Part shown: one piece after another, positions 4,854-48,801 of the stretch
Position numbering within the stretch: position 1 is the stretch's first letter
Layout: every line of letters begins with the position of its first letter
IMG/VR virus record: IMGVR_UViG_3300042698_000010
Coordinates: 1-56,698 of that record
Direction: 5' to 3' (one strand)
DNA: 56,698 nt
Source: a virus
Taxonomy: Duplodnaviria > Caudoviricetes
The notes under the pieces: generated by a model
Told to the model about the DNA's origin: nothing
Seen by the model: the letters and a program-made list of their open reading frames with translations, nothing else
Database searches by the model: none
Translations under genes and position numbers: made by a program

Positions 4854-5045
4854 TCAGCACCGCCTCAGGTAATCGCGCGGCAGCGTGGCCAGCTCGGCCA
4901 CCTGCCGCGCTTCCACGCGTACCCACCGGCCCGCGATGCGGTACCGCGTCAGCACCCCGTGGGCGATGAGGCGGTCCACCACGGCGACGTCCACGCCGAG
5001 CGCTGCCGCTGCTTCCTGGCGGCTCATGAACCTGGTCTCTGTCAC
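4854..5045 (-). CDS. Excisionase-like HTH_17 DNA-binding protein
   Basis: FMSRQEAAAALGVDVAVVDRLIAHGVL-x-R-YRIAGRWVRV pattern; probably leaderless after a TATCAT -10. Confidence 0.7.
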   Translation of the reverse strand: MTETRFMSRQEAAAALGVDVAVVDRLIAHGVLTRYRIAGRWVRVEARQVAELATLPRDYLRRC

Positions 5046-5095
5046 TCGTCCATGATAGAGTGGCAACACGGAATCACACAGTGAGAGGCAGCAGC

Positions 5096-6711: not shown

Positions 6712-7167
6712 ATGAGCCGTGACGAGTTCGACAGCGCGAGCGCGTACGTCGCGATCAAGGACCTGATGGGTGAGCTGGTGCTCTTCACCCCGTCCGAGCA
6801 CGTCGAAGAGGTCCAGACCGACTTCGGTCAGAAGGACGCGGTCCTCACCGACATCGTGGTCCTGTCGCAGGACGGCGCCCCCGAGTTCAACGACGTGATG
6901 ATCTTCCAGGGGTCGCTGATCGGCCAGCTGAAGCGGCGCGTCCCGCAGCGCAACCAGGCCACCGGCCAGGTCATCCGCGAGGGCCGCAAGCTGCTCGGCC
7001 GCATCGGCAAGGGTGAGGCGAAGAAGGGCCAGAACGCCCCCTACATCCTGGTCGACCCGAGCGACGAGGACAAGCAGGCGGCCCGCGACTACCTGGCGGG
7101 ACGCATCGTCGCCGCTGCCGCCCCGGCGTCCACCCCCGCGGCCGAAGACCCCTTCGCGGTCAAGTAG
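6712..7167 (+). CDS. Putative single-stranded DNA-binding protein
   Basis: Strong RBS AGAGG; beta-rich core; Ala/Pro linker and acidic-aromatic tail EDPFAVK; next to the exonuclease. Function is inferred. Confidence 0.5.
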   Translation: MSRDEFDSASAYVAIKDLMGELVLFTPSEHVEEVQTDFGQKDAVLTDIVVLSQDGAPEFNDVMIFQGSLIGQLKRRVPQRNQATGQVIREGRKLLGRIGKGEAKKGQNAPYILVDPSDEDKQAARDYLAGRIVAAAAPASTPAAEDPFAVK

Positions 7168-7228: not shown

Positions 7229-7303
7229 GCCCCCGTAGCTCAGTCTGGCCAGAGCAACCGCGTCGTAAGCGGTCAGCCGCAGGTTCGAATCCTGCCGGGG
7301 GCT
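7229..7303 (+). tRNA. tRNA-Thr(CGT)
   Basis: Cloverleaf: acceptor GCCCCCG/CGGGGGC, D stem GCTC/GAGC, anticodon arm ACCGC-GTCGTAA-GCGGT, T arm GCAGG-TTCGAAT-CCTGC; CCA not encoded. Confidence 0.85.
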
Positions 7304-7388: not shown

Positions 7389-7454
7389 GGGACCGCAGCT
7401 TAACGGCCGAGCGGTGTGACGACACAGGTGCGGGTTCGAATCCCGCCGGTCCCA
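7389..7454 (+). ncRNA. tRNA-like RNA with its anticodon loop reduced to a tetraloop
   Basis: Acceptor GGGACCG/CGGTCCC, D stem GCTT/GAGC, GTGT-GACG-ACAC arm, perfect T arm GCGGG-TTCGAAT-CCCGC. Confidence 0.7.
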
Positions 7455-7569: not shown

Positions 7570-7764
7570 ATGGCCATTACCGAAGGGCGTCGCCTTGACG
7601 TCCGCGCCATCGCGCCGCACCGCGGCGTGTCCGAGCGCCGTAAGCAGTTCGACAAGCACATCGACGACTGCACCGACTGCCAGCCCGTCCTGTGTTCGAC
7701 CGCTCAGGCCATGTGGCGCGGCCTCTGCCTGGCGGCCCTGCGGGCCACCCCCGGCGGTGCGTGA
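7570..7764 (+). CDS. Small Cys/His protein (possible Zn-binding)
   Basis: RBS GAGAGG; H-x3-CxxC-x4-C. Confidence 0.65.
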   Translation: MAITEGRRLDVRAIAPHRGVSERRKQFDKHIDDCTDCQPVLCSTAQAMWRGLCLAALRATPGGA

Positions 7765-8708
7765 TGGCGCGGCGTATCGACACGGGCTGGCGTGACACGC
7801 TGCTCGGCACGCGGCACGCGAAGTGGGGCTTCCACGCACCGGCCGCCGGGATGAAGATGCCGATGATCGAGTACGACCGCGGCCGCGCCGTCGGCATCGT
7901 CTCGTACCTGCCGCTCGGGCTCGACCTTCCCAGCGGCCCGGACGTGAACTCGGCGTACAGCGCCTTCGGCGCGCTGCGGGACGCCAGCGGCATGGACCAG
8001 CTGCCGTTCCTCACGGCCCGCTACGACGTGCGGGACTGGTCGATGGAAGTCTTCCCCCACAACGACGCGGCGCAGCGCCTGATGAGCCTTGCAGGGTCCG
8101 CATGGGTGAAGATGGCAGAGGCCGACTTCGCCGCGCTGCTCTACCGCATGCGCGGGCGTGAGCTGCCGGACCTGTCGCCGTACTGCGTGACATGGAACAC
8201 GGAATGGCTGCGGATCTACGGCGGGGACCTTCCGCTGGCCGACGGCTTCGAGCGCTGGCCCGGTGAGCCCATGAGCGTGCGGCGGCGGAACTACGAGCCG
8301 AAGGTGTCCATCCCGTTCGGCCAGCGGGTGCCGTGCCTGGACATCGACTTCGCCGTGATTGACCGCGAGAGCCGCGTGGCTGCCCTGGTCGACTACAAGG
8401 CGGCCGGTGGGCGGCTGCCGGTGAACCTGGTCCACCCGAACCTGAAGGCGCTGGCCAGCCTCACGAGCGGTGGCCTGAGCAGCGGCACCAACGTGGCTGC
8501 CTTCGTCGCCGAGTACACGCCGGTGCGGCACAGCTGGGAACTGAGGGTTCACCCGATCAACAAGTCGGCCCGGCTGCTGCTTGCCTACGCGCTCGGCGCC
8601 GTCAACGCCAACGTCTCGGCCCTGGCTTCCACCGTCGCCGGTGGCGAGTGGATCGCACTGACCGAGGACGAGTGGACCGACGTGCTTCGCTGCGCACGCG
8701 ACACCTAG
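7764..8708 (+). CDS. Tandem-domain restriction-endonuclease-fold (PD-(D/E)XK-like) protein
   Basis: C-half PCLDIDFAVID...ALVDYK; N-half is a similar repeat (PAAGMKMPMIEYD...GIVSYL) without the acidic residues and Lys; TGATG coupling. Confidence 0.5.
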   Translation: MARRIDTGWRDTLLGTRHAKWGFHAPAAGMKMPMIEYDRGRAVGIVSYLPLGLDLPSGPDVNSAYSAFGALRDASGMDQLPFLTARYDVRDWSMEVFPHNDAAQRLMSLAGSAWVKMAEADFAALLYRMRGRELPDLSPYCVTWNTEWLRIYGGDLPLADGFERWPGEPMSVRRRNYEPKVSIPFGQRVPCLDIDFAVIDRESRVAALVDYKAAGGRLPVNLVHPNLKALASLTSGGLSSGTNVAAFVAEYTPVRHSWELRVHPINKSARLLLAYALGAVNANVSALASTVAGGEWIALTEDEWTDVLRCARDT

Positions 8709-9166: not shown

Positions 9167-9257
9167 GGACCTGCGGGGCCCGGCGTTCAACCGGGGCCGG
9201 GCCCCTTCGCCAACCCGACTCGTGCCCGCTGGCACGGTTAAGCGAAAGGCCACCACC

Positions 9258-9581
9258 GTGACCGAAGCCGACAATCCCCGCACCACCTTCGAAGCGTTCG
9301 AATGGGTGGCCTTCGCTGCCTGTGGCCAGCTGGACGCGCCGCCGATGTTCCCCCACCCGACGGACGAAGTCGGCGTTGCGGCCGCCAAGGCGACCTGCGC
9401 CGTCTGCCCGGTCCAGCCCGAGTGCCTGGACCGGGCCATCGCCACTGGCGAGCAGCACGGCGTATGGGGCGGCATGACCGAGGAAGAGCGGCGCAACGCA
9501 CGGCGCCGTGAGTCTCGTGCCCGCAGCCGGAAGCCCGGCGCCATCGCCGTGACGATCGTGCCGCTCGGCGACCTTCTCTGA
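9258..9581 (+). CDS. whiB: WhiB-family Fe-S transcription factor
   Basis: AAC...AKATCAVCPVQPEC...GVWGG followed by a basic tail. Confidence 0.92.
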   Translation: MTEADNPRTTFEAFEWVAFAACGQLDAPPMFPHPTDEVGVAAAKATCAVCPVQPECLDRAIATGEQHGVWGGMTEEERRNARRRESRARSRKPGAIAVTIVPLGDLL

Positions 9582-12119: not shown

Positions 12120-12968
12120 TCAGCTGGCGTTGCCGTGCACGTTGACGTCCACCGAGACGGCGTTGGCCGCCAGTGCCTCGGTGACGGCAGCCTTCACCTT
12201 CGCGGCCACCTCATCGGCGGACAGGCCGTGCTGCGCGGCCACCAGGCCGGACAGCGCGCTGATCGCAGCGAGCAGTGCGGCCAGGTCATTCTTGTTGCCC
12301 CACAGCATGGCGTTCAGCTGGCCGAACCAGGCGCGGACTTCCTCATCCATGATGAGCCCCTTCGGTGCATCGGCCGCGAACAGTTCGAAGATCGGGCCGG
12401 GGTCGGTGTGGTCGTTCTCGGGGATCTGGCTGTGCCCGTAGTGTCCGGGCACCGACTGCCAGGTCCCGCTGTTGCGGTTGCCGTTCCAGGTGGGCTGGCC
12501 CATGGGCCAGACGTCGGGCACACCCCAGCTGCGCAGCCAGGACATGATCCGGTCCAGGCCTGCGGCCGGCGTGTCCTTCAGCGTGGGGTAGACCTTCCCG
12601 CCGACGCGGCAGTACGGGAAGAACAGCCACTCGATCTGGATGTTCACCGTGCCGTGCCGGTTCGTCTCGACGCCGCCGCTGGCATTGATCAGGGCCCGAG
12701 CGGACCGGTCCGCCGGGATGAACTGCGCCACGCGGCCGGTGAACGGATCGGCCAGCAGATGCGGTGCGCTGCCCGCACCGGCGCCGCTGAAGTATCCGGC
12801 GAGGCTGTCGAACGGGATGAGGTCCAGTGGCGCAGCGGCGGTGCCGTTCTTGTCCCACGTGATGTGGTGGGTAGCGCGTGCGCCGCCTACGCCGTCCATG
12901 GTCCCGCCGTTGTTGGTCGGGCGCTGCTCGGCGCCCGGAAGCCAGATGGCTGGCATCGCGGTTGTCAC
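12120..12968 (-). CDS. Endolysin, N-acetylmuramoyl-L-alanine amidase (Amidase_2-like)
   Basis: HHITWD, PHLL, IQIE, GHYGHSQIPENDHTDPG Zn-amidase motifs. Confidence 0.85.
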   Translation of the reverse strand: MTTAMPAIWLPGAEQRPTNNGGTMDGVGGARATHHITWDKNGTAAAPLDLIPFDSLAGYFSGAGAGSAPHLLADPFTGRVAQFIPADRSARALINASGGVETNRHGTVNIQIEWLFFPYCRVGGKVYPTLKDTPAAGLDRIMSWLRSWGVPDVWPMGQPTWNGNRNSGTWQSVPGHYGHSQIPENDHTDPGPIFELFAADAPKGLIMDEEVRAWFGQLNAMLWGNKNDLAALLAAISALSGLVAAQHGLSADEVAAKVKAAVTEALAANAVSVDVNVHGNAS

Positions 12969-12974
12969 TTCCTC

Positions 12975-13781
12975 TCAGTTGGGGCAGAGCGTGCTGTCCG
13001 GCACGGGCACCGGCAGCGGGTTGGCGCCCGAGCGGACCACGCCGTCGGCCGAGAGCAGCGGGCCCATGCAGCGCCACCACACCCACGCCATGTACCGGTA
13101 GCCGGTGTCGCCGGGGTGGACGCCGTCCGGCAGCAGCCCGGACGGGACGGCAGCGCTCATGCGGGCCAGCGACACGCGGGGCCCGGCCGCCGAGACGATC
13201 TGGGGCAGCCGCTCGTTGAAGCGCTGCTGCGCCACGGACGCCACGTCGCTGTAGGTGCCGTACCAGTTCGGGATCAGGTCGCCGACCACTACCCGCACCG
13301 TCGGCGACGCCGAGGTGATCCGGCCGATCAGGTCGGCCATCCGGCTGGCCATGACGTCGGCATTGGCACCCTGGCGCGCGTCGTTCGTCCCCGCGTCCAG
13401 CAGGACAACGTCAGGCTGATACGCGGCCATCCACCCGTCGATCTGCTCGGACAGCTGGTCGATGCGCCAGCCCGAGTGGCCTTCGTGGTGGGGGTTGGAC
13501 TGCTGGCCGCTCGACTGTGAGCCGACCCATGTGGCGGTATAGATCTGCTGGACTTCGACCATGTAGCGGGCGACGTCCCATCGGTATCCGTCGCCGGTCG
13601 AGCTGCCGACACCGGCCGTGATGCTGTCGCCCAGCGGCATGACCCGCAGATGCTTCGACGTGTCGATCGGCGGCAGCGTCGACTCTGCGCCGGTGGCGGC
13701 CGGGCCCGGTATGAGCAGCGCTGCGGCGACCGAGGCGGCCAGGGCCGCACCGAGAACTGCCGGAAGGGTGGTGGTGCGCAA
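12975..13781 (-). CDS. Secreted SGNH/GDSL esterase
   Basis: Signal peptide; GDSIT, HEGHSG, GTND and DGVHP blocks. Confidence 0.88.
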   Translation of the reverse strand: MRTTTLPAVLGAALAASVAAALLIPGPAATGAESTLPPIDTSKHLRVMPLGDSITAGVGSSTGDGYRWDVARYMVEVQQIYTATWVGSQSSGQQSNPHHEGHSGWRIDQLSEQIDGWMAAYQPDVVLLDAGTNDARQGANADVMASRMADLIGRITSASPTVRVVVGDLIPNWYGTYSDVASVAQQRFNERLPQIVSAAGPRVSLARMSAAVPSGLLPDGVHPGDTGYRYMAWVWWRCMGPLLSADGVVRSGANPLPVPVPDSTLCPN

Positions 13782-13789
13782 GGGTGGTC

Positions 13790-14161
13790 CTAGTCGTTGG
13801 TGGTGAAGGCCTGAGTGCGCAGCGACAGCCAGGTCAGAGAGTGCTGGTCCGGGCGGCCGGTGGGCCGGTTGCCGAGGTACTTCTGAAGCCCTGCCAGGCT
13901 GTCACGGAAGGTGTCGCCAGGCTGCTGGAAACCGCACTGATCGAGAGCCGACCAGACGATCATCTCGGCGTCCGCGTCCCGCTCGACCAGATCGAGAAGG
14001 CGGACGTGAGGCTTCGTCGGCACCGCGGGCTGCTGAAGCGCCTTCCGCACGGCCGAGGCGGCCGAGCGCTTCCCGGCCGTCCCCTTCGGGTGCGCCTCGG
14101 GCGCCAGGTCGCCGAACTCGGCCGGGCCGTCCTCGGCCGCGGGCACGTCAATGTCTGTCAC
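13790..14161 (-). CDS. Hypothetical protein with a possible peptidoglycan-binding-like C-terminus
   Basis: LAGLQKYLGNRPTGRPDQHSLTWL resembles PG-binding repeats. Confidence 0.45.
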   Translation of the reverse strand: MTDIDVPAAEDGPAEFGDLAPEAHPKGTAGKRSAASAVRKALQQPAVPTKPHVRLLDLVERDADAEMIVWSALDQCGFQQPGDTFRDSLAGLQKYLGNRPTGRPDQHSLTWLSLRTQAFTTND

Positions 14162-14188
14162 GGTGTTACCCCTTCCGGTCCGTAAAGT

Positions 14189-14458
14189 CTACTGGGCCGC
14201 GGGGGCTGCCCCGGCCCGCTGCGCCGCCAGGTAGAAGGCCAGTGCCTCGTTGACAAGAGCAGCCTGCTGGGCTGCCTGCTCGGCCTCTGCCGTCCGGGCT
14301 GCGTGCTCGCGCTCTTCCTCGGCCTTGACGTAGTCGAAGTAGTCCTTCGGGTCGATCAGTTCGCAGCCCTCGGGCAGCTCGGGCGCCGGGGTGCCCGAGT
14401 GCTCTACCAGCGCGCCGCCGGTGGTGCGGTAGTAGATCGTTCCGGGGGTGATGTCCAT
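14189..14458 (-). CDS. Hypothetical virion-region protein
   Basis: RBS GGAAGG; operon context. Confidence 0.7.
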   Translation of the reverse strand: MDITPGTIYYRTTGGALVEHSGTPAPELPEGCELIDPKDYFDYVKAEEEREHAARTAEAEQAAQQAALVNEALAFYLAAQRAGAAPAAQ

Positions 14459-15328: not shown

Positions 15329-16063
15329 TCAGAAGTAGAGCTCAAGGAAGACGGCACCGGTCGCACCCGCGCCGCCGTTGGTGGCCGCGCCGCCGTTGAC
15401 CGTCTGGTTGCCGGATCCGCCGCCGCCGTACGCCTTGCCTGCCGTGCTGAGGGACGAGCCACCGGCGCCGTAGCCGCCGCCCGCGTCGCCGCCGGGGCCA
15501 CCGGCCGCCACCGAGTTCGACACCGCAACGCCGTTCATCGACGCGCCGCCGGGAACGGTGATGTTGCCCGTGCCCGCGGTACCGCCGAGAACGCCGAAGC
15601 TGGTGGCCGCACCGGTGGCCGCGTTGGTGACACCGACGCTGCCGCCCGCGCCGCCGTTGGCGATCACGATGCCGCCGAAGTTGGACGCGGTTCCGGCCGT
15701 ACCGGCATTCGCACCGACGCCACCGGCGCCGCCCGCGCCGACGGTGATCGCCGTGACGGCGCCGAGCGAGGACGCCGCGAGGACCGATTCGCTGTAGCCG
15801 CCGCCGCCACCGCCGGACGAGACAGCCGAGCCGGTACCCGACGGACCGGCCGGGGTACCGCCACCGCCGCCACCGCCGCCGATCACCCGGACGCGGACGC
15901 GGACCAGGCCGGGGAAGGACGCCTTCGTGAAGCTGGCTGCACCGGCCGTGGTGAAGGCGACGATCTGGCGAAGGCCGATGTTCTCGGGCTTCAGCGTCAG
16001 CTCACCGGCGCCGGTGATGTCGAAGTAGTTCGGGTCCACACACACGCGGGCCAAGGTGACCAC
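15329..16063 (-). CDS. Glycine-rich minor tail protein
   Basis: GGGGGGG and GAGGAGG repeats typical of tail-fibre Gly-rich domains. Confidence 0.75.
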   Translation of the reverse strand: MVTLARVCVDPNYFDITGAGELTLKPENIGLRQIVAFTTAGAASFTKASFPGLVRVRVRVIGGGGGGGGTPAGPSGTGSAVSSGGGGGGYSESVLAASSLGAVTAITVGAGGAGGVGANAGTAGTASNFGGIVIANGGAGGSVGVTNAATGAATSFGVLGGTAGTGNITVPGGASMNGVAVSNSVAAGGPGGDAGGGYGAGGSSLSTAGKAYGGGGSGNQTVNGGAATNGGAGATGAVFLELYF

Positions 16064-16108
16064 CTTCTGTCTCTCGGGGTGCCCGGCCCGCAGAGGGCCG
16101 AGCCCAGT

Positions 16109-16492
16109 CTAACGGGGGTGGACCACCACGTGGACGGGCGTCCCGGTCGGCACGGCGTTGCCGTCGAAATCCCAGACCCGCAACGCGACGGCGGCATACG
16201 TCGCCCATGCAACGGCGACCATCGCGGGCAGATCGGACACCGCAACGGCTGCAACGACGGGCGTCGCATCCAGCGTTGCGGGGAAGACGAAGTGGGCCAG
16301 CCCGCTGGCGTTGGTCTCGACCACCGCAACGAACGGGCCCGGCTGCGCCGCAGCGGGTGCAACGGCTTCGGCCTCTTCGACCGGCCGCGTGACGCGCCGC
16401 GTTGCAGCCCGAGCCTGGCGTTGCGTCGCACGCATCACCCCGCCGAGCGCGTTGCCCGGCAGGCTGCGCGCCGCGCTGGTCCGTCGTCCCAT
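16109..16492 (-). CDS. Small minor tail protein
   Basis: TGATG coupling; beta-rich C-terminus; carries a GCAACG motif cluster. Confidence 0.6.
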   Translation of the reverse strand: MGRRTSAARSLPGNALGGVMRATQRQARAATRRVTRPVEEAEAVAPAAAQPGPFVAVVETNASGLAHFVFPATLDATPVVAAVAVSDLPAMVAVAWATYAAVALRVWDFDGNAVPTGTPVHVVVHPR

Positions 16493-17553
16493 CAGCTCAC
16501 TTCCAGTTCGTTGCCGTGCGCGGCCACCTGAATGGTCACCTTTTCCTGACCGGGGCTGCCCTCGGTCCCGCCGTCCTCGGACACCTGAAGCCCGGTGATC
16601 TTCAGCCGCTGCGTGATCGTGCGGCAGGTGCTGTCGCTCGTCACGTCCAGGCACCATCCGGGCACCAGGTTGGACACGTCCACGTCGGCCAGCGGGGACA
16701 GCGTGATGTCCTGCGTGTCGATGAACACGGGGACGGCCAGCAGAGGCGCCAGCGCCCCCGCTGCGGCTGCATCGGCAGCGGCCTGGTCCGGGATGTTCCG
16801 CTGCTCGATGTAGCGTTCCAGCAGCCCGTAGTAGGCGTTCGTGCCGCCCGCCGTGCCGACCGGGTCGCCGTCCTCGGTGCCCGCCACGATGACCCGCGTA
16901 GCGAGGCTCGCGCCGTCCTCGGCCACGGACAGGCCCGACGGAAGGTCATCGTCGGACAGCCGCCCGACCACGTCGCAGAAATCGTCGGGCAGGACGATGA
17001 CGCTGGCGCCCACGGCCGTGAAGTCGATCCCGGTGTCTGCCAGGTCGCGGACGTGATCGAGCGTCTGGCCGACGTTGGCCGCGTAGGTCCGGCCGCCCAG
17101 GACGTTGCACGGCCCGATCACGGTGGTGGTGTGTCCGGGGTCGTCAGGCTGGAAGCCGTCGTCAATGAGGGCGGCCGCAATCTCGGTGAGGTCGGTGAGG
17201 TCGAAGGCGAAGTCCTGGTGCGGCACGCGGCGTTCCAGCCAGCCGAGCACGTCGACCGCGCTGATCGACACCTGGTCCTGGTTCCAGTCCACGTTGATGA
17301 TCGGGCCGGTCCACACCAGCCCGGACGCCCCGGTCTCGGTCACGCGGTAGATGTTCAGCTGGTGGCGCCAGCTGCGGATCCCGCCCAGCTCGGCGCAGCA
17401 CTCAAGGCCCGAGACGCCGATGATGGCGGCCGCGGTGCTGACCTCATTCAGCACGCGGTTCCAGCTGACCGCGGTCAGGATGCCCGAGCTGTTGACGTCC
17501 CCGCCGTCCCGGTCGGTGATCGTGTACGCGTGGGTTGCGCAGCCGAGTGCCAT
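16492..17553 (-). CDS. Minor tail protein (baseplate hub / Tal-like)
   Basis: WNRVLNEVS, LVWTGPI and YYGLLER motifs; follows the Dit-like gene. Confidence 0.7.
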   Translation of the reverse strand: MALGCATHAYTITDRDGGDVNSSGILTAVSWNRVLNEVSTAAAIIGVSGLECCAELGGIRSWRHQLNIYRVTETGASGLVWTGPIINVDWNQDQVSISAVDVLGWLERRVPHQDFAFDLTDLTEIAAALIDDGFQPDDPGHTTTVIGPCNVLGGRTYAANVGQTLDHVRDLADTGIDFTAVGASVIVLPDDFCDVVGRLSDDDLPSGLSVAEDGASLATRVIVAGTEDGDPVGTAGGTNAYYGLLERYIEQRNIPDQAAADAAAAGALAPLLAVPVFIDTQDITLSPLADVDVSNLVPGWCLDVTSDSTCRTITQRLKITGLQVSEDGGTEGSPGQEKVTIQVAAHGNELEVS

Positions 17554-21025: not shown

Positions 21026-21115
21026 AGCCCGTCCCTTCGTTGCGGTGGTTGCAGGTGTTGCAGTGCCGCAACGGGCCGCGTTGCAGAGGCGCAACGCGGC
21101 CCGTTGCCCCGGCGC

Positions 21116-32191: not shown

Positions 32192-32538
32192 GCGGCATCA
32201 GCCCGGTGACCGGGGCGGGAATCGTCCCAGCGGTTCAGCAGCGCCTGGACACCGGCGACGGCCCAGCAGTCGACGGCCACGGACCACAGCGGCAGGTTGG
32301 CCCACTGGCCGGTCGCGGTGACGTAGACCAGCACGGTGACCACGGACAGCCAGAAGCCGATGCAGTAGATGCAGCTGATCAGCTGGCGGACGAAGCTGCG
32401 CACCTTGCTCTCGTGACGCCTGGCGTGCCACAGCTCGATCCAGTTCCGGACGGGGTCGCCGATGCTGTCCCATACGAACAGCTGCGTGGCGCGATAGGCG
32501 GCGAAGCCCAGCACGATGACGGTTGCGAGGTGATCCAC
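32188..32538 (-). CDS. DUF1360-like membrane protein
   Basis: AAYRATQLFVWDSI...LISCIYCIGFW. Confidence 0.75.
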   Translation of the reverse strand: MDHLATVIVLGFAAYRATQLFVWDSIGDPVRNWIELWHARRHESKVRSFVRQLISCIYCIGFWLSVVTVLVYVTATGQWANLPLWSVAVDCWAVAGVQALLNRWDDSRPGHRADAA

Positions 32539-32650
32539 AGCGTCCCCTTCGGTCGGTCGGTTGCCTGGTCCAGCTTACCGGCGACGGTTCCCGCCACCGC
32601 ACGGCGCAGCCGTGACCGGTCGTACCAGGCAAACCGGACAGGAAGTGGAT

Positions 32651-32982
32651 CTTCCCGCGTTACGGGCCCGCGTTTCCCGGGAAACGCGGGAAGGACGTTT
32701 CCGCAGGTCAGGCCAGGTATTGGGGGTCAATCGCCCGCGTATCCCGACTTTGGTCGGAAGACTAGGACCCGTAAGGGGTTAATACAATGATTGGTACATA
32801 CGACGCCGTTACACAGGGTCACATAACTGCGCCTACTGGGGGGCCGTTCATGTCAAGTGTTCATACCCCGCTCAGCTCAAAGTGTTGGGCCGAAACTCGG
32901 GTAACGCGGGAATCCGGGCTCTAAAGGCCCTCTGACCTGCGGAAACGGTTTCCCGGGAAACGCGGGACCGTTTCGCGGGAAG
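32651..32982. repeat. Palindromic origin-like element, copy A
   Basis: Non-coding; inverted GGGAAACGCGGGA-type and TGACCTGCGG arms around an AT-richer core GTTAATACAATG..TGGTACATA; homologous to 55345..55675. Confidence 0.8.
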
Positions 32983-33000
32983 CCCGTTCCCCGGCGGGGG

Positions 33001-33029
33001 TTGCACTGCAACACGAAGCCAGGTACCGT
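33001..33029 (+). promoter_or_regulatory. Promoter of an isolated + strand gene
   Basis: TTGCAC-N17-TACCGT. Confidence 0.65.
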
Positions 33030-33064
33030 TAGGTCTATCAGCAACCGCGAGAGAGGAACCCACG

Positions 33065-33688
33065 ATGAACACGACCCACGCCGCAGCCGGTGTCTACTTC
33101 CCCGTCACCGAGCAGGACGACGTGCTGGTGAACCTCACCCTTCAGGGCCAGGTGATCCGGGCCGACGTCTACGCCGATGGCGCCTACACCGTCTGGGCGG
33201 GCTTCGAGTCCATCGCCACCGGCCAGCTGAACGGGACCGAGGGCCCGCTGATGGTCTTCTTCGCGGCCGAGGCGATGGTCTGGTCCTACGGCATCGACAC
33301 CGACCGAGAGGCCAACGCCGCCGCCGCCGAGCTGGCCGCCACGATCGAGCACGTGGACGCCAACGAGGTCAGCGAGGCGGTTGCCCAGGTCCGCGCCGAC
33401 GGTGCCGAGAAGCTGGCCGAGGCTGCCGAGATGGAAGCGCAGGGCAACGAGCCGATCGTGATCGCGGTCCGCCGCAACGGCGAGGTCCGGGGCCACCGCA
33501 AGATCGGCGCATGGGACCCGCGCCACCCCGCCCGTGCTGCCGCGTCCGTCCGCCGGGCCGGTGAGCGCCTGTCCCGCTGGACACAGGCTGACGAGGACGC
33601 CTACGGCCGCTACGTCTCGGACGGCCTGGCCGACACCGACGGCTACTACGCACCGCTGGACCGGGCGGCCTGGTCCTACGGCCGGTAG
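33065..33688 (+). CDS. Hypothetical protein (moron-like, opposite to the late operon)
   Basis: Has its own promoter, GAGAGGA RBS and terminator. Confidence 0.75.
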   Translation: MNTTHAAAGVYFPVTEQDDVLVNLTLQGQVIRADVYADGAYTVWAGFESIATGQLNGTEGPLMVFFAAEAMVWSYGIDTDREANAAAAELAATIEHVDANEVSEAVAQVRADGAEKLAEAAEMEAQGNEPIVIAVRRNGEVRGHRKIGAWDPRHPARAAASVRRAGERLSRWTQADEDAYGRYVSDGLADTDGYYAPLDRAAWSYGR

Positions 33689-38333: not shown

Positions 38334-39713
38334 TTAGCGCCCGACCGGCCGGGCCCACCGCGAACCCTGCCGCTGCGCCGCCTCGGGCCGCGCGGCGGCA
38401 GGGTTGTGCTTGCGCGGGGGCTCGTTCCAGTCCAGGTAGGCGACGGCGTACCGGCCCGCGTCCATGCTGTGGTCATGCAGCTTCAGCGGGACTTCCTTCG
38501 GGATGCCGTCGGGCCCCCGCTCGACGGCCCAGACGTAGCCGTTCACCTCGCCCAGGAAGCCGCGCGGCCGCTTCTGCTGCTCGCCGACCAGGTCCCTGCC
38601 CAGGACGCATCCCCTGAAGACGTACAGGCGGGGCTTCCCGTCGCCCGCCGGACGCATGCGCGACTGCATGAGCTGCACGCCGCGAGAGACCGCCTTGCGG
38701 GCCGCCACGGTGGGCAGCCCGAGGTGCTTCGTCAGCGTGGCCCGGTCCTCGGCATCGTGGTCACAGACCACCGCGACCGGCATGCCCTCGGCGTCGCGGT
38801 TCTCGGCCAAAATTTCCTTGATCCGCTTGGCGTGGTCTTCGACCAGGGTCTGTGTCTGGTGGATCTCACGGGTCAGGTACATCCGGCCGTCGGGGTCGAC
38901 CCGCCACCACTGGCAGACGAACGGGTTGCTGTACCCGAAGTCCACGCTCAGGATCAGCGGCCAGTCCTTCGGGATCGGGAACCACTCGATCGCGTTGACG
39001 TTGTCGCGCCAGTCATCGAAGACCAGGCCTTCGGCTGCGGCCCAGAGGCCGTCCCGGTAGCGCAGCCGACGGACGCCGGTGAGTGAGTCCAGGAACGCCA
39101 GGTAGTCGGTTCCCGCGTCGGTCCAGGTCCCGTCCGGGTTGCACAGGTACGGGTTGTCCTCATGCACGGACGTGTACATGCGCATCTTGTTGGACGCGTC
39201 GTCGGCGCGCTTCTTCAGCCAGTGGTCCGGGTGGTCCGGGTTGCACGCCGCAACGATCTGCTTGTAGGTCGCCGCGCTGCCGCGCAGACGGGTGAGCAGC
39301 GTCTCGTAGGCAACCACCGACACCTGGTTGGCCTCGTCGATCAGCACCCGGTCCAGAGACATGGACAGCACCTTGCCGGGGTTGTCCATGCCGCCGACCA
39401 TGATCATGCTGCCGTTCGGGTAGCGGTAGCCCGCGGGCTTCGACGCCGAGCCGCCGAACCACTTCACCTTCCCGCTGGCGATCTCTTCCGCCGCTACGAA
39501 CTGCTCGAAGGCGACCAGGGTCGACGCGGTCAGCGAGGCGTGCGTCTGGCGCACGATCAGCGACTGCATGCCGCGGACCGAGCTGCTGTCCGCATGCAGC
39601 TTCATCAGCGCGGCAGCGGTCTTGCCCGTGCCCGCGCTGCCCACGATGGCCACCTCGGGCCCGTGGTCGCGGATCAGGTCGGCCGCTGCGCCGCGGGCGA
39701 CGAACTCACGCAC
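38334..39713 (-). CDS. terL: Terminase large subunit
   Basis: Walker A GSAGTGKT, Walker B VLIDEA, ACNP, nuclease SVDFGYSNP and DHSMDAGRY. Confidence 0.92.
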   Translation of the reverse strand: MREFVARGAAADLIRDHGPEVAIVGSAGTGKTAAALMKLHADSSSVRGMQSLIVRQTHASLTASTLVAFEQFVAAEEIASGKVKWFGGSASKPAGYRYPNGSMIMVGGMDNPGKVLSMSLDRVLIDEANQVSVVAYETLLTRLRGSAATYKQIVAACNPDHPDHWLKKRADDASNKMRMYTSVHEDNPYLCNPDGTWTDAGTDYLAFLDSLTGVRRLRYRDGLWAAAEGLVFDDWRDNVNAIEWFPIPKDWPLILSVDFGYSNPFVCQWWRVDPDGRMYLTREIHQTQTLVEDHAKRIKEILAENRDAEGMPVAVVCDHDAEDRATLTKHLGLPTVAARKAVSRGVQLMQSRMRPAGDGKPRLYVFRGCVLGRDLVGEQQKRPRGFLGEVNGYVWAVERGPDGIPKEVPLKLHDHSMDAGRYAVAYLDWNEPPRKHNPAAARPEAAQRQGSRWARPVGR

Positions 39714-40191
39714 TACGGGGCCGCTCTTCCAGGATGATCCGGATGCCGCCGTTGCCCTGGCTGTCATCGTCGGCCTTCGGCGCCGTGACGCCGTTCAGCT
39801 TCGTGATGCTCTCGACAAGGCGGCGCGCCTCATCGACGGCGCGCAGCTTCACGGCCCGGTCGTCCGGCGTCAGCTCGTTGCCGTTCTCGTCATAGATCGC
39901 CGGGGCATCCGCGTCCAGCATGTCGAGCGTCTCGGACAGAAGGTGTTCCAGCCGCAGGTTCGCCGTGTCCCGCATCGTGTCCGCGGTCTCTTCGGCGCGC
40001 AGCGTGGCGGCGGCCATGGCGTCGCCGACGGCGCGCAGCGCTGCGGCCGGGCTCGGCCGCCCCTCGCTGTCCGTGAAGCCGCACTTGTCGGCGATCTCGG
40101 ACCAGTGCGCGCCGCGCACCCGCAGCTTCATGGCCCTGTCCAGCCGCTGCTGGGCGAGCAGCTCGGCGGCCACGTTGTCGCTGTCGGCCAC
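39706..40191 (-). CDS. terS: Terminase small subunit (HTH)
   Basis: AMKLRVRGAHWSEIADKCGF HTH; directly upstream of terL. Confidence 0.7.
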   Translation of the reverse strand: MADSDNVAAELLAQQRLDRAMKLRVRGAHWSEIADKCGFTDSEGRPSPAAALRAVGDAMAAATLRAEETADTMRDTANLRLEHLLSETLDMLDADAPAIYDENGNELTPDDRAVKLRAVDEARRLVESITKLNGVTAPKADDDSQGNGGIRIILEERPRSA

Positions 40192-40553
40192 GATGGCCCC
40201 CTTCCGTCGTGACCAGGGTATCGGGCCCGGACACAGCGAAGCCCCGGCAGCGGTTGAGACTGCCGGGGCTTCGCCGCGCAACCACCCGAAGGGCACCACC
40301 GGGACCGGGGCGGACACAGTCAGGATAACGCACGCATGGCACAGCGAAGCCCCCGGTCCGCCAGGATGCCGGGGGCTTCGCCGCGAGCGCGGGGGAAGCG
40401 CGTGCGGGCAGTACCCACCCTATCGCTACAGCCGTGGTGCAACCGACCGTCGCGGACATGTCATACACCATCGGCGTCCGTGGTGCAACAGCATCCGTGA
40501 TCATGTGCTAGTGTTGAAAGTCACGCGAAGAAACACACCAAAGGCGGTGTCCC

Positions 40554-42404
40554 GTGGCTATCGACCCCTTCCCCAGCAAGCGCAACGATCCTGCGTGGGC
40601 CGACTTCACCGAGTCGCACGATCTCACCCAGGTTCCCCGCCATGCCCCGGCCGTCCCGCCGGGCATCGACGTCCAGGCGATGATCAAGCTTGTCGAGCAG
40701 GCACAGAACGTACAGTCGGCGATCCTCGCGCCCGAGCGCGAGAAGCTGCCCTGGTGGGCGAAGCACGACGTGGCCAAGACGACGTACTGGACGCTGCTCG
40801 TCCCCACGCTGGTGACCGGCTGCGCCAACACCGCGGCGCACCAGTGGGGGTCCACCGGCCCCGCCATCACCGGTGGCCTGGTCTCGGCCGCCGCCACCAC
40901 GCTCGGCGTGGTCGGCCTGAACAACAACTGGCGCAGCCAGGGGTTGGCCGTGATGCTCGCCGGTGCCGTCGGCGGTGCGTCCTGGTCGGCCGCTGCGGCC
41001 GGTGGCGGCTGGACCGAGGTCATGGCGTGGCTGGCCGCCGCCAGTGCCACGCTCGGGTTCAAGCTGATCTGGAACCGGAAGCACGCCGAGTCGAAGGCGA
41101 AGGTGGCCCTCACCGAGGCGAAGGTTCGCACCGAGCTGGCGAAGGGTGACGCGGTCAAGTCGAAGTCAGCCATCACGGACTCACTCGGCCTGCTGCGCCT
41201 TCAGGAAATGCAGCGCGCTGCAACGGCCGCCGCCGCACCCGCGTTGCACGGTGCAACGCCCGAAGAGCGCGCGTTGCGCTGCGCTGTCTGGGACGTGTTC
41301 CAGGTCGAGCTGTACAGCTGCAACGTGCGTTACACCAGGACCGGCTACGTCGCAACGGTCGGCCTGCCCGTTGCGCTGTCGCGCAACATCGCGCACTCGG
41401 CATGGGACAAGGTCTCGTCCGCGTTGCGGGCCGACGGCCGGTTCGTCGTCACGGACGGGCGGCTGTCCAACGAGCTGGATGTCAAGTTCCTGGACAACGC
41501 GAAGGTGTCGACCGAGCCGCTTCCGTGGGACGTATCGGTCATGCCGGACAACCCGGCGCAGCTGATGAGCATCGGCGTGGACACCGAGACCGGTGAGCCG
41601 GTCCATGTCCAGTTCGATGAGCGCCTTCTCGTCTGCGGCGCCTCGGGCACGGGCAAGTCCTGGTCGACCCGGCCCATGCTGGGCCATGCGCTGATCAACG
41701 GCGACATGGTCATGATCGATGGCAAGGGTGAAGAGGCGAACGTCTGGTGCAAGGTCTGCCGCGTCGCGGTCGAAGCCGAAGAGATCGAGCAGCTGATCGA
41801 TGCGCTGCACGCCGAGATGAACACGCGGAAGGCCATCCTGGCCGCCCGCGGGATCAGCGTCTGGGACGGCCCGCAGCTCACCGTGTTCGTGGACGAGAAC
41901 CAGGTTGTCCTGTCCGCCATCGGGAAGGACGCCGGTCGGATGCAGCGCTACCGCGAACTGAGCAGCCTCGGCCGCTCGCGCGGGATCGTGCTGTGGATCG
42001 CCACGCAGAAGCCGACCATGTCCGGCTCGGCCCCCGGCATCGACAGCCAGATGGCGGGCAACTTCCTGAACCGCTTCGCGCTGCGCGTGGCGAGCGAGCA
42101 GGAAGCCCGCACGGCTCTGGACGACAACGCCTACTACGAGCCCAACAAGATCCCCGAGGGGCGCGAGTGGCGGGGCCACGGCTACTGGAAGGGCTACGGC
42201 CCGGCGCTGATCCGCACCTGGACGATGGACGACGATGCGGTCCGGCGGCTGCCGGTGAGCATCTGGCGGGGCCAGTCGGAAGAGCCGCTGGACGTCCGCG
42301 CCAAGCGCTGGCTGGAAGCCAACCCGGACGGCTCACAGCGTGCGATGGCCGCTGCCCTCGGTGTCCCGCGCAGCACGCTGCAAGAGGCCCTGAAGGGCCT
42401 GTGA
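40554..42404 (+). CDS. FtsK/SpoIIIE-family membrane DNA translocase (TraB-like)
   Basis: About 4 N-terminal TM helices; Walker A GASGTGKS, IDGKG, Walker B VFVDE, GRSRGIVLWIATQKP; C-terminal HTH SQRAMAAALGVPRSTLQEAL. Confidence 0.85.
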   Translation: MAIDPFPSKRNDPAWADFTESHDLTQVPRHAPAVPPGIDVQAMIKLVEQAQNVQSAILAPEREKLPWWAKHDVAKTTYWTLLVPTLVTGCANTAAHQWGSTGPAITGGLVSAAATTLGVVGLNNNWRSQGLAVMLAGAVGGASWSAAAAGGGWTEVMAWLAAASATLGFKLIWNRKHAESKAKVALTEAKVRTELAKGDAVKSKSAITDSLGLLRLQEMQRAATAAAAPALHGATPEERALRCAVWDVFQVELYSCNVRYTRTGYVATVGLPVALSRNIAHSAWDKVSSALRADGRFVVTDGRLSNELDVKFLDNAKVSTEPLPWDVSVMPDNPAQLMSIGVDTETGEPVHVQFDERLLVCGASGTGKSWSTRPMLGHALINGDMVMIDGKGEEANVWCKVCRVAVEAEEIEQLIDALHAEMNTRKAILAARGISVWDGPQLTVFVDENQVVLSAIGKDAGRMQRYRELSSLGRSRGIVLWIATQKPTMSGSAPGIDSQMAGNFLNRFALRVASEQEARTALDDNAYYEPNKIPEGREWRGHGYWKGYGPALIRTWTMDDDAVRRLPVSIWRGQSEEPLDVRAKRWLEANPDGSQRAMAAALGVPRSTLQEALKGL

Positions 42405-42874: not shown

Positions 42875-42960
42875 GGTGTGTTCCTCTCTCGCGGTTGCTT
42901 GCAAGAGCAACGCTACAGGGCCGGGGCTGCAAGTGCAACCCCGGCCCAGGATGATGTACA

Positions 42961-44614: not shown

Positions 44615-45625
44615 TCAGTCCAGGCCGAGCACGTCGTTCGGGTGGTACATCGGGACCCCGTCGACCATGGTGTAGGGCAGCCGCCCGCGGTGCTTCAGCG
44701 AGCGGATCGTTCCGGGGGCGCAGCCCTTCAGCGCGGCCGCCTCGGCCGTGGTCAGCAGCTTCACCGTGGGGTCGCTGGTGACGGCCAGCTCGGCCTCGGC
44801 CATGGCGGCGGCCAGCGTATCCTCACGGTCCTGGCTGTGAAGCTGGACGCCGCGGAAGTAGTCGGCGATCGGCGCACGCGAGATGCTGCGGTATCCGCCG
44901 TTGTCCTCGGCCTTGTACGGCCCCTCAGACGCCTCGGGCGCAGCAGCCGGGGTGATGGACCGGGCAGCCGGTGCGGGGGCCACAGCGGGCCGCTCAGGGC
45001 CCGTGGCGGTACCGGCGAGCACGGCGGCCAGGTTGGCGTCCGCGCCCTGGCTGATCCGATAGCGCTGGATCTCACCGAGCTGGACCGAGAGCTGAGCGTC
45101 CGTGGCGGCGAAGCCCTTCGTCAGCCGCCAGACGGCCGCCTTGCTGAGCTTGCGGCCGAGCCCCTTGCCGTTGGCCGCGCGGTTCGCGTGCCAGAGCAGC
45201 AGGCCGCTGCGCCGCTGCTGCTCGATGTCGGTACCCGTCCGGTAGGCGACGACCCGGCGCGCGACGAAGGCGACGCCCTCACCGGCCGCGGTCATCGCCA
45301 GCGGCGTGAACGCCATGACGACCGCCTCGGCCGTGGTCGGGGCCAGCGCGATGCCGACGCCCGAGGCGGCCAGCGGCACCAGCCACATGCCCGCTCGGAC
45401 CGTGGCGGGGGTGTGCTGCCCCATGAGCGTGACGGCCAGCGCGACCAGTGCGCAGATGAGCGTTGCGCCCTCACCGGCGGCCACCAGGCCGAGGGCCGAG
45501 GCGCCGCGGTGAAGCACGTGGTTCATGTTGACGTAGGTGGCGACGGCGCCAGCAATGCCGACGGCGGCCATCGGGGTGGCGGCCAGCGCGAGGACGGCTG
45601 TCTGGCCCTTCGTGAGCTTCAGCAT
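44615..45625 (-). CDS. Spd-like multi-TM membrane protein with a C-terminal HTH_17 domain
   Basis: About 4 TM helices (LVAAGEGATLI, TPLAMTAAGEG), Pro/Ala linker, LLTTAEAAALKGCAPGTIRSLKHRGRL; architecture recalls Streptomyces plasmid spread proteins. Confidence 0.65.
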   Translation of the reverse strand: MLKLTKGQTAVLALAATPMAAVGIAGAVATYVNMNHVLHRGASALGLVAAGEGATLICALVALAVTLMGQHTPATVRAGMWLVPLAASGVGIALAPTTAEAVVMAFTPLAMTAAGEGVAFVARRVVAYRTGTDIEQQRRSGLLLWHANRAANGKGLGRKLSKAAVWRLTKGFAATDAQLSVQLGEIQRYRISQGADANLAAVLAGTATGPERPAVAPAPAARSITPAAAPEASEGPYKAEDNGGYRSISRAPIADYFRGVQLHSQDREDTLAAAMAEAELAVTSDPTVKLLTTAEAAALKGCAPGTIRSLKHRGRLPYTMVDGVPMYHPNDVLGLD

Positions 45626-45642
45626 GATCGTTGCCTCTCGGT

Positions 45643-45834
45643 TCATCGGTGGGTGCGACGCCGGTTGCGTGTGCGTCGCGGTCGGGTGTTGCGGGGGTGC
45701 AGCAGTGCGACGACCAGTGCGACGTTGCACGCGACACCGGTTGCGGTCCACGTCGCATCGGCCGGGGTGGTGGCGATCAGCGCCCAGCTCAGGGCTGCGA
45801 CGGTCCATGCGACGGCGTGCAACGGGCGCTTCAC
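45643..45834 (-). CDS. Small 2-TM membrane protein with a basic tail (Spd-like)
   Basis: RBS AGAGGGG before GTG; promoter-like TTGACA-N17-AACACT at 45909-45937. Confidence 0.6.
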   Translation of the reverse strand: MKRPLHAVAWTVAALSWALIATTPADATWTATGVACNVALVVALLHPRNTRPRRTRNRRRTHR

Positions 45835-46010
45835 GGCGGGCCCCTCTGCGTTGGGGACGGGCGGCCCGGCCTGTCGACATCCGGGCGGCCCGTCGTCTTT
45901 CTACTTCCAGTGTTGCACCAGCGTCGCAGGCTGTCAAGCACGGTGTTGCAAGAGGGCGTTGCACGTTGCGGCCCCTGTTGCAGTGTCGCAACGGGGGCCG
46001 TGGCAGCGTC

Positions 46011-46976
46011 TCAGTCCAGCGGCCGAGCAACCGTGGTGGTGACCGGCCCGGTGACGCCGAGGTGGCGTGCAACGCCTACAGCGGCCCCCTTCAGGCTGCT
46101 GCTGCTGACGCCGAACCCGAGGGTCGTCCAGCGGCCCCGCAGCAGGGCCACGGCCACCTCTGTCCCGTCAGCGTGGATGATGCCGACCGAGTCGCTGTCC
46201 ATCACGATGCGGACCTCGGTCACGGCGGGCGGCTCGGGCTGCTGCGCGGTCAGCGCCGTTGCAGCTGCGGACAGCTGCTCGGGCGTGAACACGATGCCCG
46301 CCGAGCTGAGGGCGGCCGCCAGGACGTCTTCCTCGGCGTCACCGGCGACTCGGGACGGGTCGACCGCCGGTGCCTCGGTGGTGCTGGTGACCGAGACGGC
46401 GGTGCTGTACTCGCGGGTCACGGTGATCCGGACCGTTCCGGCGAAGCCGTCGCTGCGGGCCAGGCCGTCGGCCGCCGCGGTGACCGAGCCGAAGCCGTCG
46501 CGGTGCCACATGGTCTCGGCGTAGGGGTCCTCGGCGTAGAAGCCCCCGTCGCCATCGGCGCCGATCAGGCCCTGGAAGCCGTCCGCGCCGTGGACCAGGG
46601 CAACGCCCTGGGTCTCGCTCTGCATGTCAACGCTCACCTGCCGGGCCTTGACCGGCTCGGCGTCGGGCTGCTGCGCCTCGGGCTTGGCCGGGGCCAGGTA
46701 GTCGCCCTCGCCGGTCGCGGGCTGCATGCTGGCATCCACGCGGTCCTGGTGCGCCAGCTCGGCCGCCTCTTCGGCCGCCAGCAGCTTCAGGCAGCGCTTG
46801 CAGTCGACATCGGCGGTGGTGACGTAGTACCGCTCGCTGGCCCGGTTGCCACCGCACTGCGGGCTGACACCCCAGCCGTCGTACTTGCGGGCGTAGTGGA
46901 CCTTGCCACTGCCGAGCTTCACAGCCACGCGGGTGAAGGTCTGGCCGCTGCGGTCGGTGTCCGTGGTGCCGATCAT
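46011..46976 (-). CDS. Hypothetical protein
   Basis: RBS GAAGGG; promoter TTGCAC-N17-TAGAGT at 47017-47045; KVH...C...VDCKRC Zn-ribbon-like N-terminus. Confidence 0.75.
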   Translation of the reverse strand: MIGTTDTDRSGQTFTRVAVKLGSGKVHYARKYDGWGVSPQCGGNRASERYYVTTADVDCKRCLKLLAAEEAAELAHQDRVDASMQPATGEGDYLAPAKPEAQQPDAEPVKARQVSVDMQSETQGVALVHGADGFQGLIGADGDGGFYAEDPYAETMWHRDGFGSVTAAADGLARSDGFAGTVRITVTREYSTAVSVTSTTEAPAVDPSRVAGDAEEDVLAAALSSAGIVFTPEQLSAAATALTAQQPEPPAVTEVRIVMDSDSVGIIHADGTEVAVALLRGRWTTLGFGVSSSSLKGAAVGVARHLGVTGPVTTTVARPLD

Positions 46977-47135
46977 CGTGTTGCCCTTCGTTCGTTGCTT
47001 CCTGCTGACAGAAGTAACTCTAGCCGGTCCTGCGTTGCAGTGCAACCCCTTCCCAGCAACGTTCTGATCCGCACGGCGGGCGGCATGCGACGGCCCCCGT
47101 TGCAGTGGTGCAACGGGGGCCGTGACCTGCGACGT

Positions 47136-48675: not shown

Positions 48676-48739
48676 GGTCGTTGCCTCTCGCTTCGTTGCT
48701 TCCTGCTGACAGATCTAAAGCTACACGACTCGGGGCCGC

Positions 48740-48761: not shown

Positions 48762-48801
48762 GGATGCTGACGGGGTGTTGTTGCACGTCTGACCTGCGGT
48801 G

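Follow-up and report, generated by a model that had tools for sequence, protein, structure and literature searches.

The 56,698-nucleotide record IMGVR_UViG_3300042698_000010, analysed here over its whole length and called the window below, is the genome of a complete virulent Woodruffvirus-like Streptomyces phage, with terminal repeats, an IMG/VR completeness score of 100% and a GC content of 69.3%. On its minus strand, at 16109-16492, lies a small gene for a protein of 127 amino acids (aa), which overlaps the upstream minor tail protein gene in an ATGA and has a glycine-rich fibre-like gene on its other side; the label tail gene refers to this position only. The product matches phrog_18509, to which no function is assigned, and is conserved over ~35 aa at the N-terminus; its C-terminal part is variable and in some relatives contains collagen-like repeats. 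Written into the gene and reaching slightly beyond it is array A (16156-16514), which consists of 12 GCAACG/CGTTGC and 4 GCGACG/CGTCGC words in both orientations, irregularly spaced at 9-59 bp.

An earlier note, made by a model from the letters of the DNA alone, had pointed to about 11 copies of GCAACG or its complement within ~300 bp, in both orientations, where ~0.2 copies were expected by chance. Both figures agree well with ours. From 16156 to 16455 there are 11 copies (6 on the plus and 5 on the minus strand), starting at 16156, 16180, 16209, 16242, 16251, 16274, 16326, 16359, 16400, 16419 and 16450; a 12th follows at 16509. The whole window contains 102 copies, as compared with 51.2 ± 6.5 in 100 dinucleotide shuffles (largest 65), the shuffles corresponding to ~0.27 copies per 300 bp. 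In an unbiased scan of all 6-mers CGTTGC, with 11 per 300 bp, was the second most clustered 6-mer of the window, exceeded only by GCCGCC in the adjoining glycine-rich gene.

The same note had claimed that the words force GCA and GTT codons that are rare in this genome, which was borne out: the gene's five GTT and five GCA codons all fall within words, and genome-wide GTT accounts for 6.0% of the Val and GCA for 7.7% of the Ala codons. The GC content of third codon positions (GC3) is 0.81, below the 0.87-0.91 of the neighbouring genes. No codon phase is free of words, phases 0, 1 and 2 having 2, 3 and 6 of them, and 11 of the 16 word positions that the amino acid sequence permits are used. When synonymous codons were resampled by genome usage, a mean of 1.63 copies (maximum 6) was obtained, and when the gene's own codons were permuted, a mean of 2.57 (maximum 9); in neither case did any of 20000 trials reach 11. 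The enrichment thus persists under both codon-preserving nulls, the kind of check that had been proposed for it. With GCGACG included, the gene holds 15 GCRACG words as compared with 4.04 expected, a number reached by 0 of 5000 resamplings. An antisense open reading frame (ORF; 16158-16598, plus strand), in which GCA-ACG would encode Ala-Thr, was considered and rejected: its GC3 is 0.71 as compared with 0.81 for the minus-strand gene, and the word orientation varies among relatives.

A nucleotide search with the tail region yielded 17 records, all of Streptomyces phages of the genus Woodruffvirus (cluster BG), with 60-80% identity. The homologous small gene carries 7-11 words in all five genomes first tested, and 7-10 in phiSAJS1, BayC, Mischief19 and the IMG/VR relative L016; Xkcd426 has 5. 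For phiSAJS1, BayC, Mischief19 and L016 usage-based resampling never reached the observed count (0/5000 in each), nor did permutation of the own codons (0/5000), except in BayC (16/5000). The protein is only 25-36% identical to its homologues in three GenBank relatives and 37% identical to that of the metagenome relative G001, and the word positions mostly differ among five homologous small genes.

The survey was widened to 59 IMG/VR loci, which were fetched by alignment of the upstream minor tail protein and of which 53 were examined and 50 counted. Left out were L013, L014 and L077 (contigs already examined), L047, L075 and L079 (ending at the match) and three more with too little downstream sequence. 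Where the minor tail protein was at least 57% identical, 16 of 23 loci had 5-11 GCAACG in the 630 bp after its gene. The 27 more distant loci had no array (0/27) and none had more than one GCAACG, though the small gene with the conserved N-terminus was present. Of the seven close exceptions, three loci from two lineages carry GCGACG arrays instead, namely L029 (9 vs. 3.29 expected; 4/3000) and the pair L034/L035, from which L034 was tested (9 vs. 2.44; 0/3000). The arrays of L025 and L026 are weak and mixed (6 words vs. 2.7 in L025, the one tested; 112/3000). After the minor tail gene of L037 no word form exceeded expectation, and in the 630 bp after that of L048 there was no GCAACG.

In phiSAJS1 the GenBank annotation gives three short ORFs at this place (gp28-gp30, L003 3052-4178), two of them opposite to the tail-gene strand. 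The real homologue of the array gene is found at L003 3701-4174 on the minus strand and encodes 157 aa with collagen-like repeats; the gene caller was probably misled by the rare codons that the array forces.

When 41 genes of the window were ranked by codon resampling, only the gene 16109-16492 (11 words vs. 1.59) and the gene of a Tra/FtsK/SpoIIIE-like DNA translocase (40554-42404, plus strand; 9 vs. 2.3) were reached by 0/1000; the next-ranked gene, 46011-46976, has 3 words vs. 0.38 (5/1000). The translocase, of 616 aa, has hydrophobic N-terminal segments (judged by eye), a motor at aa 325-598 and a short C-terminal helix-turn-helix (HTH). Its array C (41220-41427) contains 8 GCAACG, or 9 words with one GCGACG, in the codons for aa 223-290, between those for the hydrophobic N-terminal part and those for the ATPase motor. 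The N-terminal part was enriched in all six genomes compared (4-12 GCAACG vs. 0.4-2.5 expected), the count being reached by 0-1 of 2000 resamplings in five of them and by 75/2000 in G003. The motor and C-terminal part were not clearly enriched (0-4 words vs. 0.9-3.9), G001 coming nearest with 4 vs. 1.6 (107/2000). CGTTGC is also the top or joint-top 6-mer of the translocase N-terminal part in five further metagenome loci (L116/L119, L118, L122, L123 and L126), counted as four distinct phages because the rows for L116 and L119 are identical. The 62-kb genome G001 has no arrays with 7 or more words besides those in the tail-region gene and the translocase gene, both of which are shifted toward the G form. 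The jumbo Streptomyces phages Satis, Frankenweenie and JustBecause, which have a 41%-identical soluble FtsK-like protein, showed no GCAACG array around its gene; this result is uninformative, since the protein architecture differs.

The word is YGCRACG, with the A form dominant in the window phage. The degenerate form YGCRAC of the earlier note proved apt: in four genomes the -1 position is C or T at 85% of 139 clustered and at 56% of 303 isolated sites, and the flanks of the 139 clustered sites showed no conservation beyond this pyrimidine. All 12 GCAAC within array A are followed by G. A spacing spectrum of the words had no 10-11 bp helical periodicity and no peak at the distance of an extracytoplasmic function-type promoter (GCAAC, 16-18 bp, CGTT); its peaks at 9 and 12 bp came from leaders and codon-phased pairs.

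These arrays are genuine, selected at the DNA level and conserved across relatives, and those inside genes occur in just two genes. The DNA-level code over a protein gene that the earlier note had proposed withstood both codon shuffles and is kept in homologues of 25-37% identity at mostly unconserved positions. Its view that the cluster is one of several also held: if a cluster is defined by 4 or more GCAACG copies with no gap above 120 bp, the window has six, with 12, 5, 8, 4, 5 and 7 copies. Its further step, to a protein-binding array for tethering, transfer, segregation or silencing, goes beyond these counts and stays conjectural.

The translocase matches Pfam FtsK_SpoIIIE (E = 1.5e-6) and phrog_17958 (1.1e-31). 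For the motor, identity is 61% over 274 aa to Tra of the 8.7-kb plasmid NZ_CP070256 from Streptomyces californicus, 34.5% to pIJ101 Tra and only 35% to the phage translocase of the BayC type. Its neighbour in every relative examined is the gene of a Spd-like membrane protein of 344 aa (44615-45649, minus strand). An AlphaFold model of this protein (mean predicted local distance difference test score, pLDDT, 73) begins with four long helices, from which a disordered linker leads to a confident C-terminal winged helix (pLDDT 94-96). HTH_17 is matched by all 27 members of the family; DUF2637 is matched below the Pfam cut-off by 12 of the 27 (best E = 1.2e-4; window protein, E = 0.05). More than 343 homologues were found, all unnamed or "hypothetical", and the protein had no sequence match in the PDB at E ≤ 1. 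With Foldseek the winged helix was superposed on Streptomyces BldC (6ama, 6amk) with a root-mean-square deviation of 1.5 Å, 29% identity and probability 1.0, the whole-query E-values being only 0.1-0.3 because the domain is small; weaker matches were to Pukovnik Xis, RacA and MerR-family heads. In the alignment the winged helix is nearly invariant, T314, R316 and R321 being invariant. Plasmid NZ_CP070256 has the matching pair, tra followed by a DUF2637 gene whose product also ends in an HTH. The phage thus carries a plasmid-like module, a Tra/FtsK-like pump together with a DUF2637/SpdB-like membrane protein bearing a BldC/Xis/RacA-like winged helix.

A stretch that covers the first 190 nt of the Spd-like gene and the DNA before it (45461-45819) has 12 GCRACG words, mostly of the G form; at this position Mischief19 has 19 and G003 has 14. 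In its coding part the group has 6 words vs. 3.19 expected, which was reached by 369/5000 and is not significant; a third conserved array at the start of this gene is possible.

In Streptomyces, TraB assembles at the plasmid locus clt via 8-bp TraB recognition sequence (TRS) repeats and moves double-stranded DNA, and spread across cross-walls requires Spd proteins, SpdB2 being described as a DNA-binding membrane protein that interacts with TraB (PMC4170104). We tentatively propose that the arrays are clt-like docking or tethering sites for the Tra/Spd-like membrane module, which seems to us a fair way short of assured. The YGCRACG words would be double-stranded DNA binding sites, kept by selection on the DNA and overlaid on coding sequence, and the tail-region and translocase-gene arrays would act like the clt/TRS arrays of conjugative plasmids. 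The plasmid-derived module, the pump plus the SpdB-like protein with its BldC-like winged helix, would grip the phage DNA at the arrays, and the gripped DNA would be tethered at the membrane or septum, or fed into the pump. Tethering or transfer is favoured because the only other gene-internal array lies in the translocase gene, because the motor is 61% identical to a plasmid Tra and because the adjoining gene encodes an SpdB-like membrane protein with a winged helix. We infer that a word-binding protein exists, that it belongs to the module and what its binding would effect. A role in segregation is unlikely, since the phage group is virulent, as Geonosis of the same genus is described (PMC11536984).

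The likeness to the clt/TRS-TraB systems of pSVH1, pIJ101 and relatives consists in an FtsK-like translocase encoded on the same element and perhaps also in a dense array of a short word partly in coding sequence, in or next to the translocase gene, and in an adjoining gene for a probable DUF2637/SpdB-type partner, as these systems are presented in PMC4170104. The same source describes the palindromes sps, which are bound by SpdA2 and lie inside spdA2 of pIJ101, where synonymous changes separate the site from the protein. These, too, are sites for a protein in the coding sequence of a Streptomyces mobile element, although for the phage words binding is putative. An sps is a 12-bp palindrome present 2-3 times in the gene of its own binder and affects plasmid stability (PMC4170104), whereas the phage has 11-16 copies of an asymmetric word of 6-7 bp in genes that do not obviously encode the binder. 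The third parallel is with BldC of Streptomyces and RacA of Bacillus, which have a small MerR/Xis-like winged helix; the phage domain, as modelled, superposes on that of BldC and less well on that of RacA, and differs in being joined to a membrane domain of four helices. As a multimer, BldC occupies short repeats whose number varies, and RacA uses many dispersed sites to fix the chromosome at the cell pole. The target sequences of both differ from YGCRACG.

Several observations weigh against docking at clt-like sites. A clt locus, where known, occurs singly, within tra or next to it, whereas in this virulent tailed phage there are several arrays, the best conserved one in the tail-region gene ~25 kb away, plus four intergenic clusters. 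TRS are 8-bp direct repeats, unlike the phage words of 6-7 bp in both orientations. The pump HTH varies while the word is constant: the translocase C-terminal recognition helices are of at least five types (PRSTLQEAL, SKSVVKRRL, SRKRVESSL, HKQTVKRSL and GKSTISNAL). PhiSAJS1 is without a translocase motor, yet its tail-gene array is undiminished in density, with 9 words inside the gene and 10 for the cluster as a whole; the sole translocase remnant there is a stand-alone 71-aa winged-helix ORF (gp76, 56051-56266) with 66% identity to the last 32 aa of the BayC protein. The A-fractions of the two arrays agree weakly across 7 genomes (rho ~0.5 by hand calculation, not significant). That the A or G form of the word follows K/V in the Spd-like helix or R/E in the translocase helix (PR..Q / PE..R) was suggestive in 8 genomes and was contradicted by L118 and L126; the A/G counts are noisy, since the GCGACG background is high. 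Plasmid NZ_CP070256 (L022) appeared to offer a positive control, 16 of its 20 CGTGAGC/GCTCACG words lying in its DUF2637/SpdB-like gene (1621-2253). Phase 0 accounts for 11 of these 16, however, nine of them read as CGT-GAG, in a low-complexity stretch rich in Arg and Glu, so that the words may just reflect protein repeats; the array could be clt-like or simply encode a repeat protein.

Because at least five helix types go with one word, and because phiSAJS1 has the array without the motor, the pump's own head is disfavoured as specific reader. A comparison of the C-terminal 70 aa of the window and BayC translocases with plasmids gave only generic MarR/IclR-type matches. Within the module we favour as candidate reader the Spd-like winged helix, which fits a constant word since it is nearly invariant, over the fast-changing C-terminal HTH of the translocase. 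Outside the module, and to the detriment of the proposal, the words could be read by an excisionase-family HTH_17 protein of 71 aa (4854-5069, minus strand; 51-78% identical in all 7 relatives compared), by a double-HTH protein (50320-51009) or by the C-terminus of the primase-helicase, the latter two being conserved in all 7 relatives as well. In 5 distant array-less relatives, only 1 of which is a record at least 90% complete, both the translocase (0/5) and the Spd-like gene (0/5) are missing, and since they are missing together this does not discriminate between the candidates.

Instead of docking sites, the arrays could be operators for a soluble phage transcription factor such as the 71-aa Xis-like protein or the 50320-51009 protein, which we consider unlikely though well worth keeping in mind. 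Early promoters would be shut down when the words are occupied, and arrays inside genes would be silencers, roadblocks or titration sinks. This possibility draws on the intergenic words that overlap promoter-like elements or stand in leaders, and on the conservation of both candidate proteins. The four intergenic clusters mix terminator-like hairpin stems, promoter-like -35 elements and leader words beside the ribosome-binding site. Cluster B (21038-21107; 5 words plus 2 GCAAC), between the genes of the major tail protein and the head-tail adaptor, is made up of two tandem hairpin-capable GCAACG..CGTTGC pairs, followed by three direct TGCAAC repeats 9 bp apart directly 5' of a ribosome-binding site. 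Cluster D (45957-46074; 4 words), downstream of the gene 46011-46976 and upstream of the Spd-like gene, has a terminator-like hairpin at 45970-46000 with GTTGC/GCAAC within the stem. Cluster E (46993-47115; 5 words) contains a hairpin with a 14-bp stem (47088-47119) and the leader GGAAGCAACGAA; in its promoter-like TTGCAC-17-TAGAGT the -35 element is overlain by the palindrome GTTGCAcTGCAAC. Cluster F (48679-48873; 7 words) contains a promoter-like TTGCGT-17-TAGCTT and a leader as in cluster E, with two words beside the ribosome-binding site of the gene 47824-48675 and more words upstream.

Such elements recur. The spacing spectrum of five genomes has a sharp peak at 41 bp between GTTGC and GCAAC (22 pairs), which is due to a conserved promoter-leader cassette: GGGGTTGCA(C/T), ~17 bp, TAnnGT and then CTTCCTTGTAAGCAACC, which is followed by the ribosome-binding site. 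In the window it is found at 33000-33065 and, on the minus strand, at 42882-42951, 46976-47060 and 48675-48760; the five genomes together have 22 instances. The cassette usually comes directly after a CCCCGGGG-type hairpin, so that many of the genes behind it look like separate terminator-promoter units. The 5' CUUCC of its leader could pair with GGAAG of the ribosome-binding site, and the leader may thus sequester this site.

The cassette words, however, are GCAACC rather than YGCAACG, and in G001 the cassette (GTTGCA / AAGCAAC) is unchanged in all three copies found while the arrays there are mainly GCGACG. We therefore regard the words of promoters and those of arrays as two distinct features with a common core. 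Operators would also leave the restriction of gene-internal arrays to the tail-region and translocase genes unexplained, and by eye a TAnnnT -10 element was not seen within array A. Comparable in part are stoperators, which measure 13-14 bp, stand singly in the short gaps between genes in the direction of transcription and serve temperate phages as binding sites of the immunity repressor. As in cluster A mycobacteriophages and R4-like Streptomyces phages (for the latter see PMC10276819), a short phage-specific word is scattered over the genome, including transcribed regions; the words of this virulent group differ in being 6-7 bp long, clustered, gene-internal and of mixed orientation.

Improbable, in our estimate, is an origin of replication, with the words as iterons and a second, enhancer-like site, bound by the C-terminal domain of a P4-alpha/D5-type primase-helicase. 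The models are P4 ori/crr and the hexamer iterons of the ori of Staphylococcus aureus pathogenicity islands (SaPI); systems of this type are known in which the origin lies within coding sequence or short iterons are split between two loci. The phage does have the enzyme: its gene (55694-56698, joined to 2-1546 across the window ends) encodes DUF3854, D5_N, DUF5906 and a weak Pox_D5, and the conserved C-terminal region would fit a constant word. The arrays, however, are far from the replication genes, and there is no AT-rich unwinding region in or beside array A, the GC content being 66-76% per 100 bp from 15901 to 16700. The cumulative GC skew does not turn consistently at the arrays, its minimum lying near them in Mischief19 and Xkcd426 and elsewhere in the window, BayC and phiSAJS1, and an origin would leave unexplained why every translocase-bearing relative has an array inside the translocase gene.

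Slightly more doubtful still is that the words promote recombination, as Chi-like sequences or shared microhomology that would mark the mosaic joints of the tail-fibre and translocase modules. Both arrays do lie at mosaic boundaries. Between the window and relatives, identity is 52-61% for the minor tail proteins upstream as compared with 25-36% for the array gene, and several downstream genes (12120-14458) are without a homologue in three relatives. The translocase is likewise a mosaic, with an N-terminal part common within the phage group and a homology between types that stops around the array: the motor resembles plasmid Tra far more than that of BayC, and in G002 (L084) a different motor and C-terminal HTH follow the homologous N-terminal part. 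The phage also encodes a homologue of a Cas4-family exonuclease (so annotated in Mischief19) and a RuvC-like resolvase. Chi-type sites, however, act in one orientation and those of the arrays are mixed; we know of no Chi sequence for Streptomyces, and fast-evolving receptor-binding regions are expected in any phage without special sequences.

That the arrays are pac sites, recognized by the small terminase subunit (TerS), is very improbable. The pac site of P1 has hexamer repeats inside pacA, and one pac site is the rule, whereas here there are several arrays and the best conserved, array A, is ~22 kb from the terminase genes; TerS was not identified by any family search. Headful packaging from a pac site is implied by the circular permutation of cluster BG genomes (PMC5511901), and array C lies ~0.9 kb from the start of the gene (39706-40317) adjoining the large terminase gene, so that a pac role for array C alone is possible.

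Least credible of all is that the arrays have no function, as a by-product of Ala/Val/Thr-rich composition or of codon or mutational bias, or that they reflect RNA structure: the protein is indeed rich in the Ala-Val and Ala-Thr pairs that permit the word, and the lowered GC3 would fit, but the codon-preserving resamplings (0/20000), the use of three phases and the recurrence in diverged homologues at other positions argue against it, the mRNA at 16130-16520 folds no better than shuffles (z = -1.48; 8/100 as good), an Rfam scan of the window gave only two tRNAs, both elsewhere, and no family at array A, on which grounds an RNA-level reading was rejected, and pairing between words is ruled out by BayC, where 7 of 8 words have one orientation.

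Cluster BG phages are siphoviruses with prolate heads (PMC5511901). The window is syntenic with BayC, whose annotation shows the gene order of the phage group and lists no integrase, except that the translocase gene is inverted relative to BayC gp71. The annotations of the relatives contain neither integrase nor repressor, and the annotation tables of four of them contain no partition or integrase genes, for which the window itself was not searched. The window genes 7692-8708 and 9222-9581 match those that flank the two methylase genes of BayC; from the gap of only ~0.5 kb between them the window appears to lack both methylases, no direct methylase search having been made. The two tRNA genes (7229-7303 and 7389-7454, plus strand; Rfam RF00005, 63 and 45 bits) are an addition compared with Geonosis, which is reported to be without tRNA genes in the account of that phage. 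Among the sequencing runs listed, 20 of 22 contain part of the window (best share 0.43), all as contigs, and none is listed as RNA.

A second, unrelated repeat family (GGAAACGCGGGAAG / TTTCGCGGGAA-like) fills two divergent intergenic regions of the window, 32538-33065 and 55298-55694, with CGGGAA 7 times per 300 bp from 55358 and GGAAAC 6 times per 300 bp from 32672. It recurs in phiSAJS1 (L003 ~7060-7100) and G001 (~11430) and is probably the operator set of another regulator.

FtsK-like genes have been noted repeatedly in Streptomyces phages, without a function being assigned in the passages that deal with them (PMC11536984, PMC13587820, bioRxiv 10.1101/2024.02.16.580700). Our literature search, on Streptomyces phages, FtsK-like genes, stoperators and TraB/clt/TRS, found no paper on the arrays; it did not extend to subscription journals or to supplements such as the stoperator tables of PMC10276819. 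New is that a phage FtsK-like gene is accompanied by a conserved cis element and sits in a plasmid-type Tra/Spd pair, with which the role of a conjugation pump in a lytic phage becomes directly testable. The arrays further illustrate, in a clean form, how a DNA code is maintained on top of a protein gene that evolves fast; genes of this kind are mis-called in annotation, and such a code would be lost unnoticed in synthetic recoding. One may go further and suppose that a strictly virulent phage has domesticated the transfer and spread apparatus of a Streptomyces plasmid and has placed clt-like arrays in genes of its own. Cross-walls would then hold its replicating genomes, which the pump would drive, as naked double-stranded DNA, into the adjacent hyphal compartments, a virion-free spread that we regard as rather unlikely. 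If it were true, a lytic phage would be moving from cell to cell as DNA.

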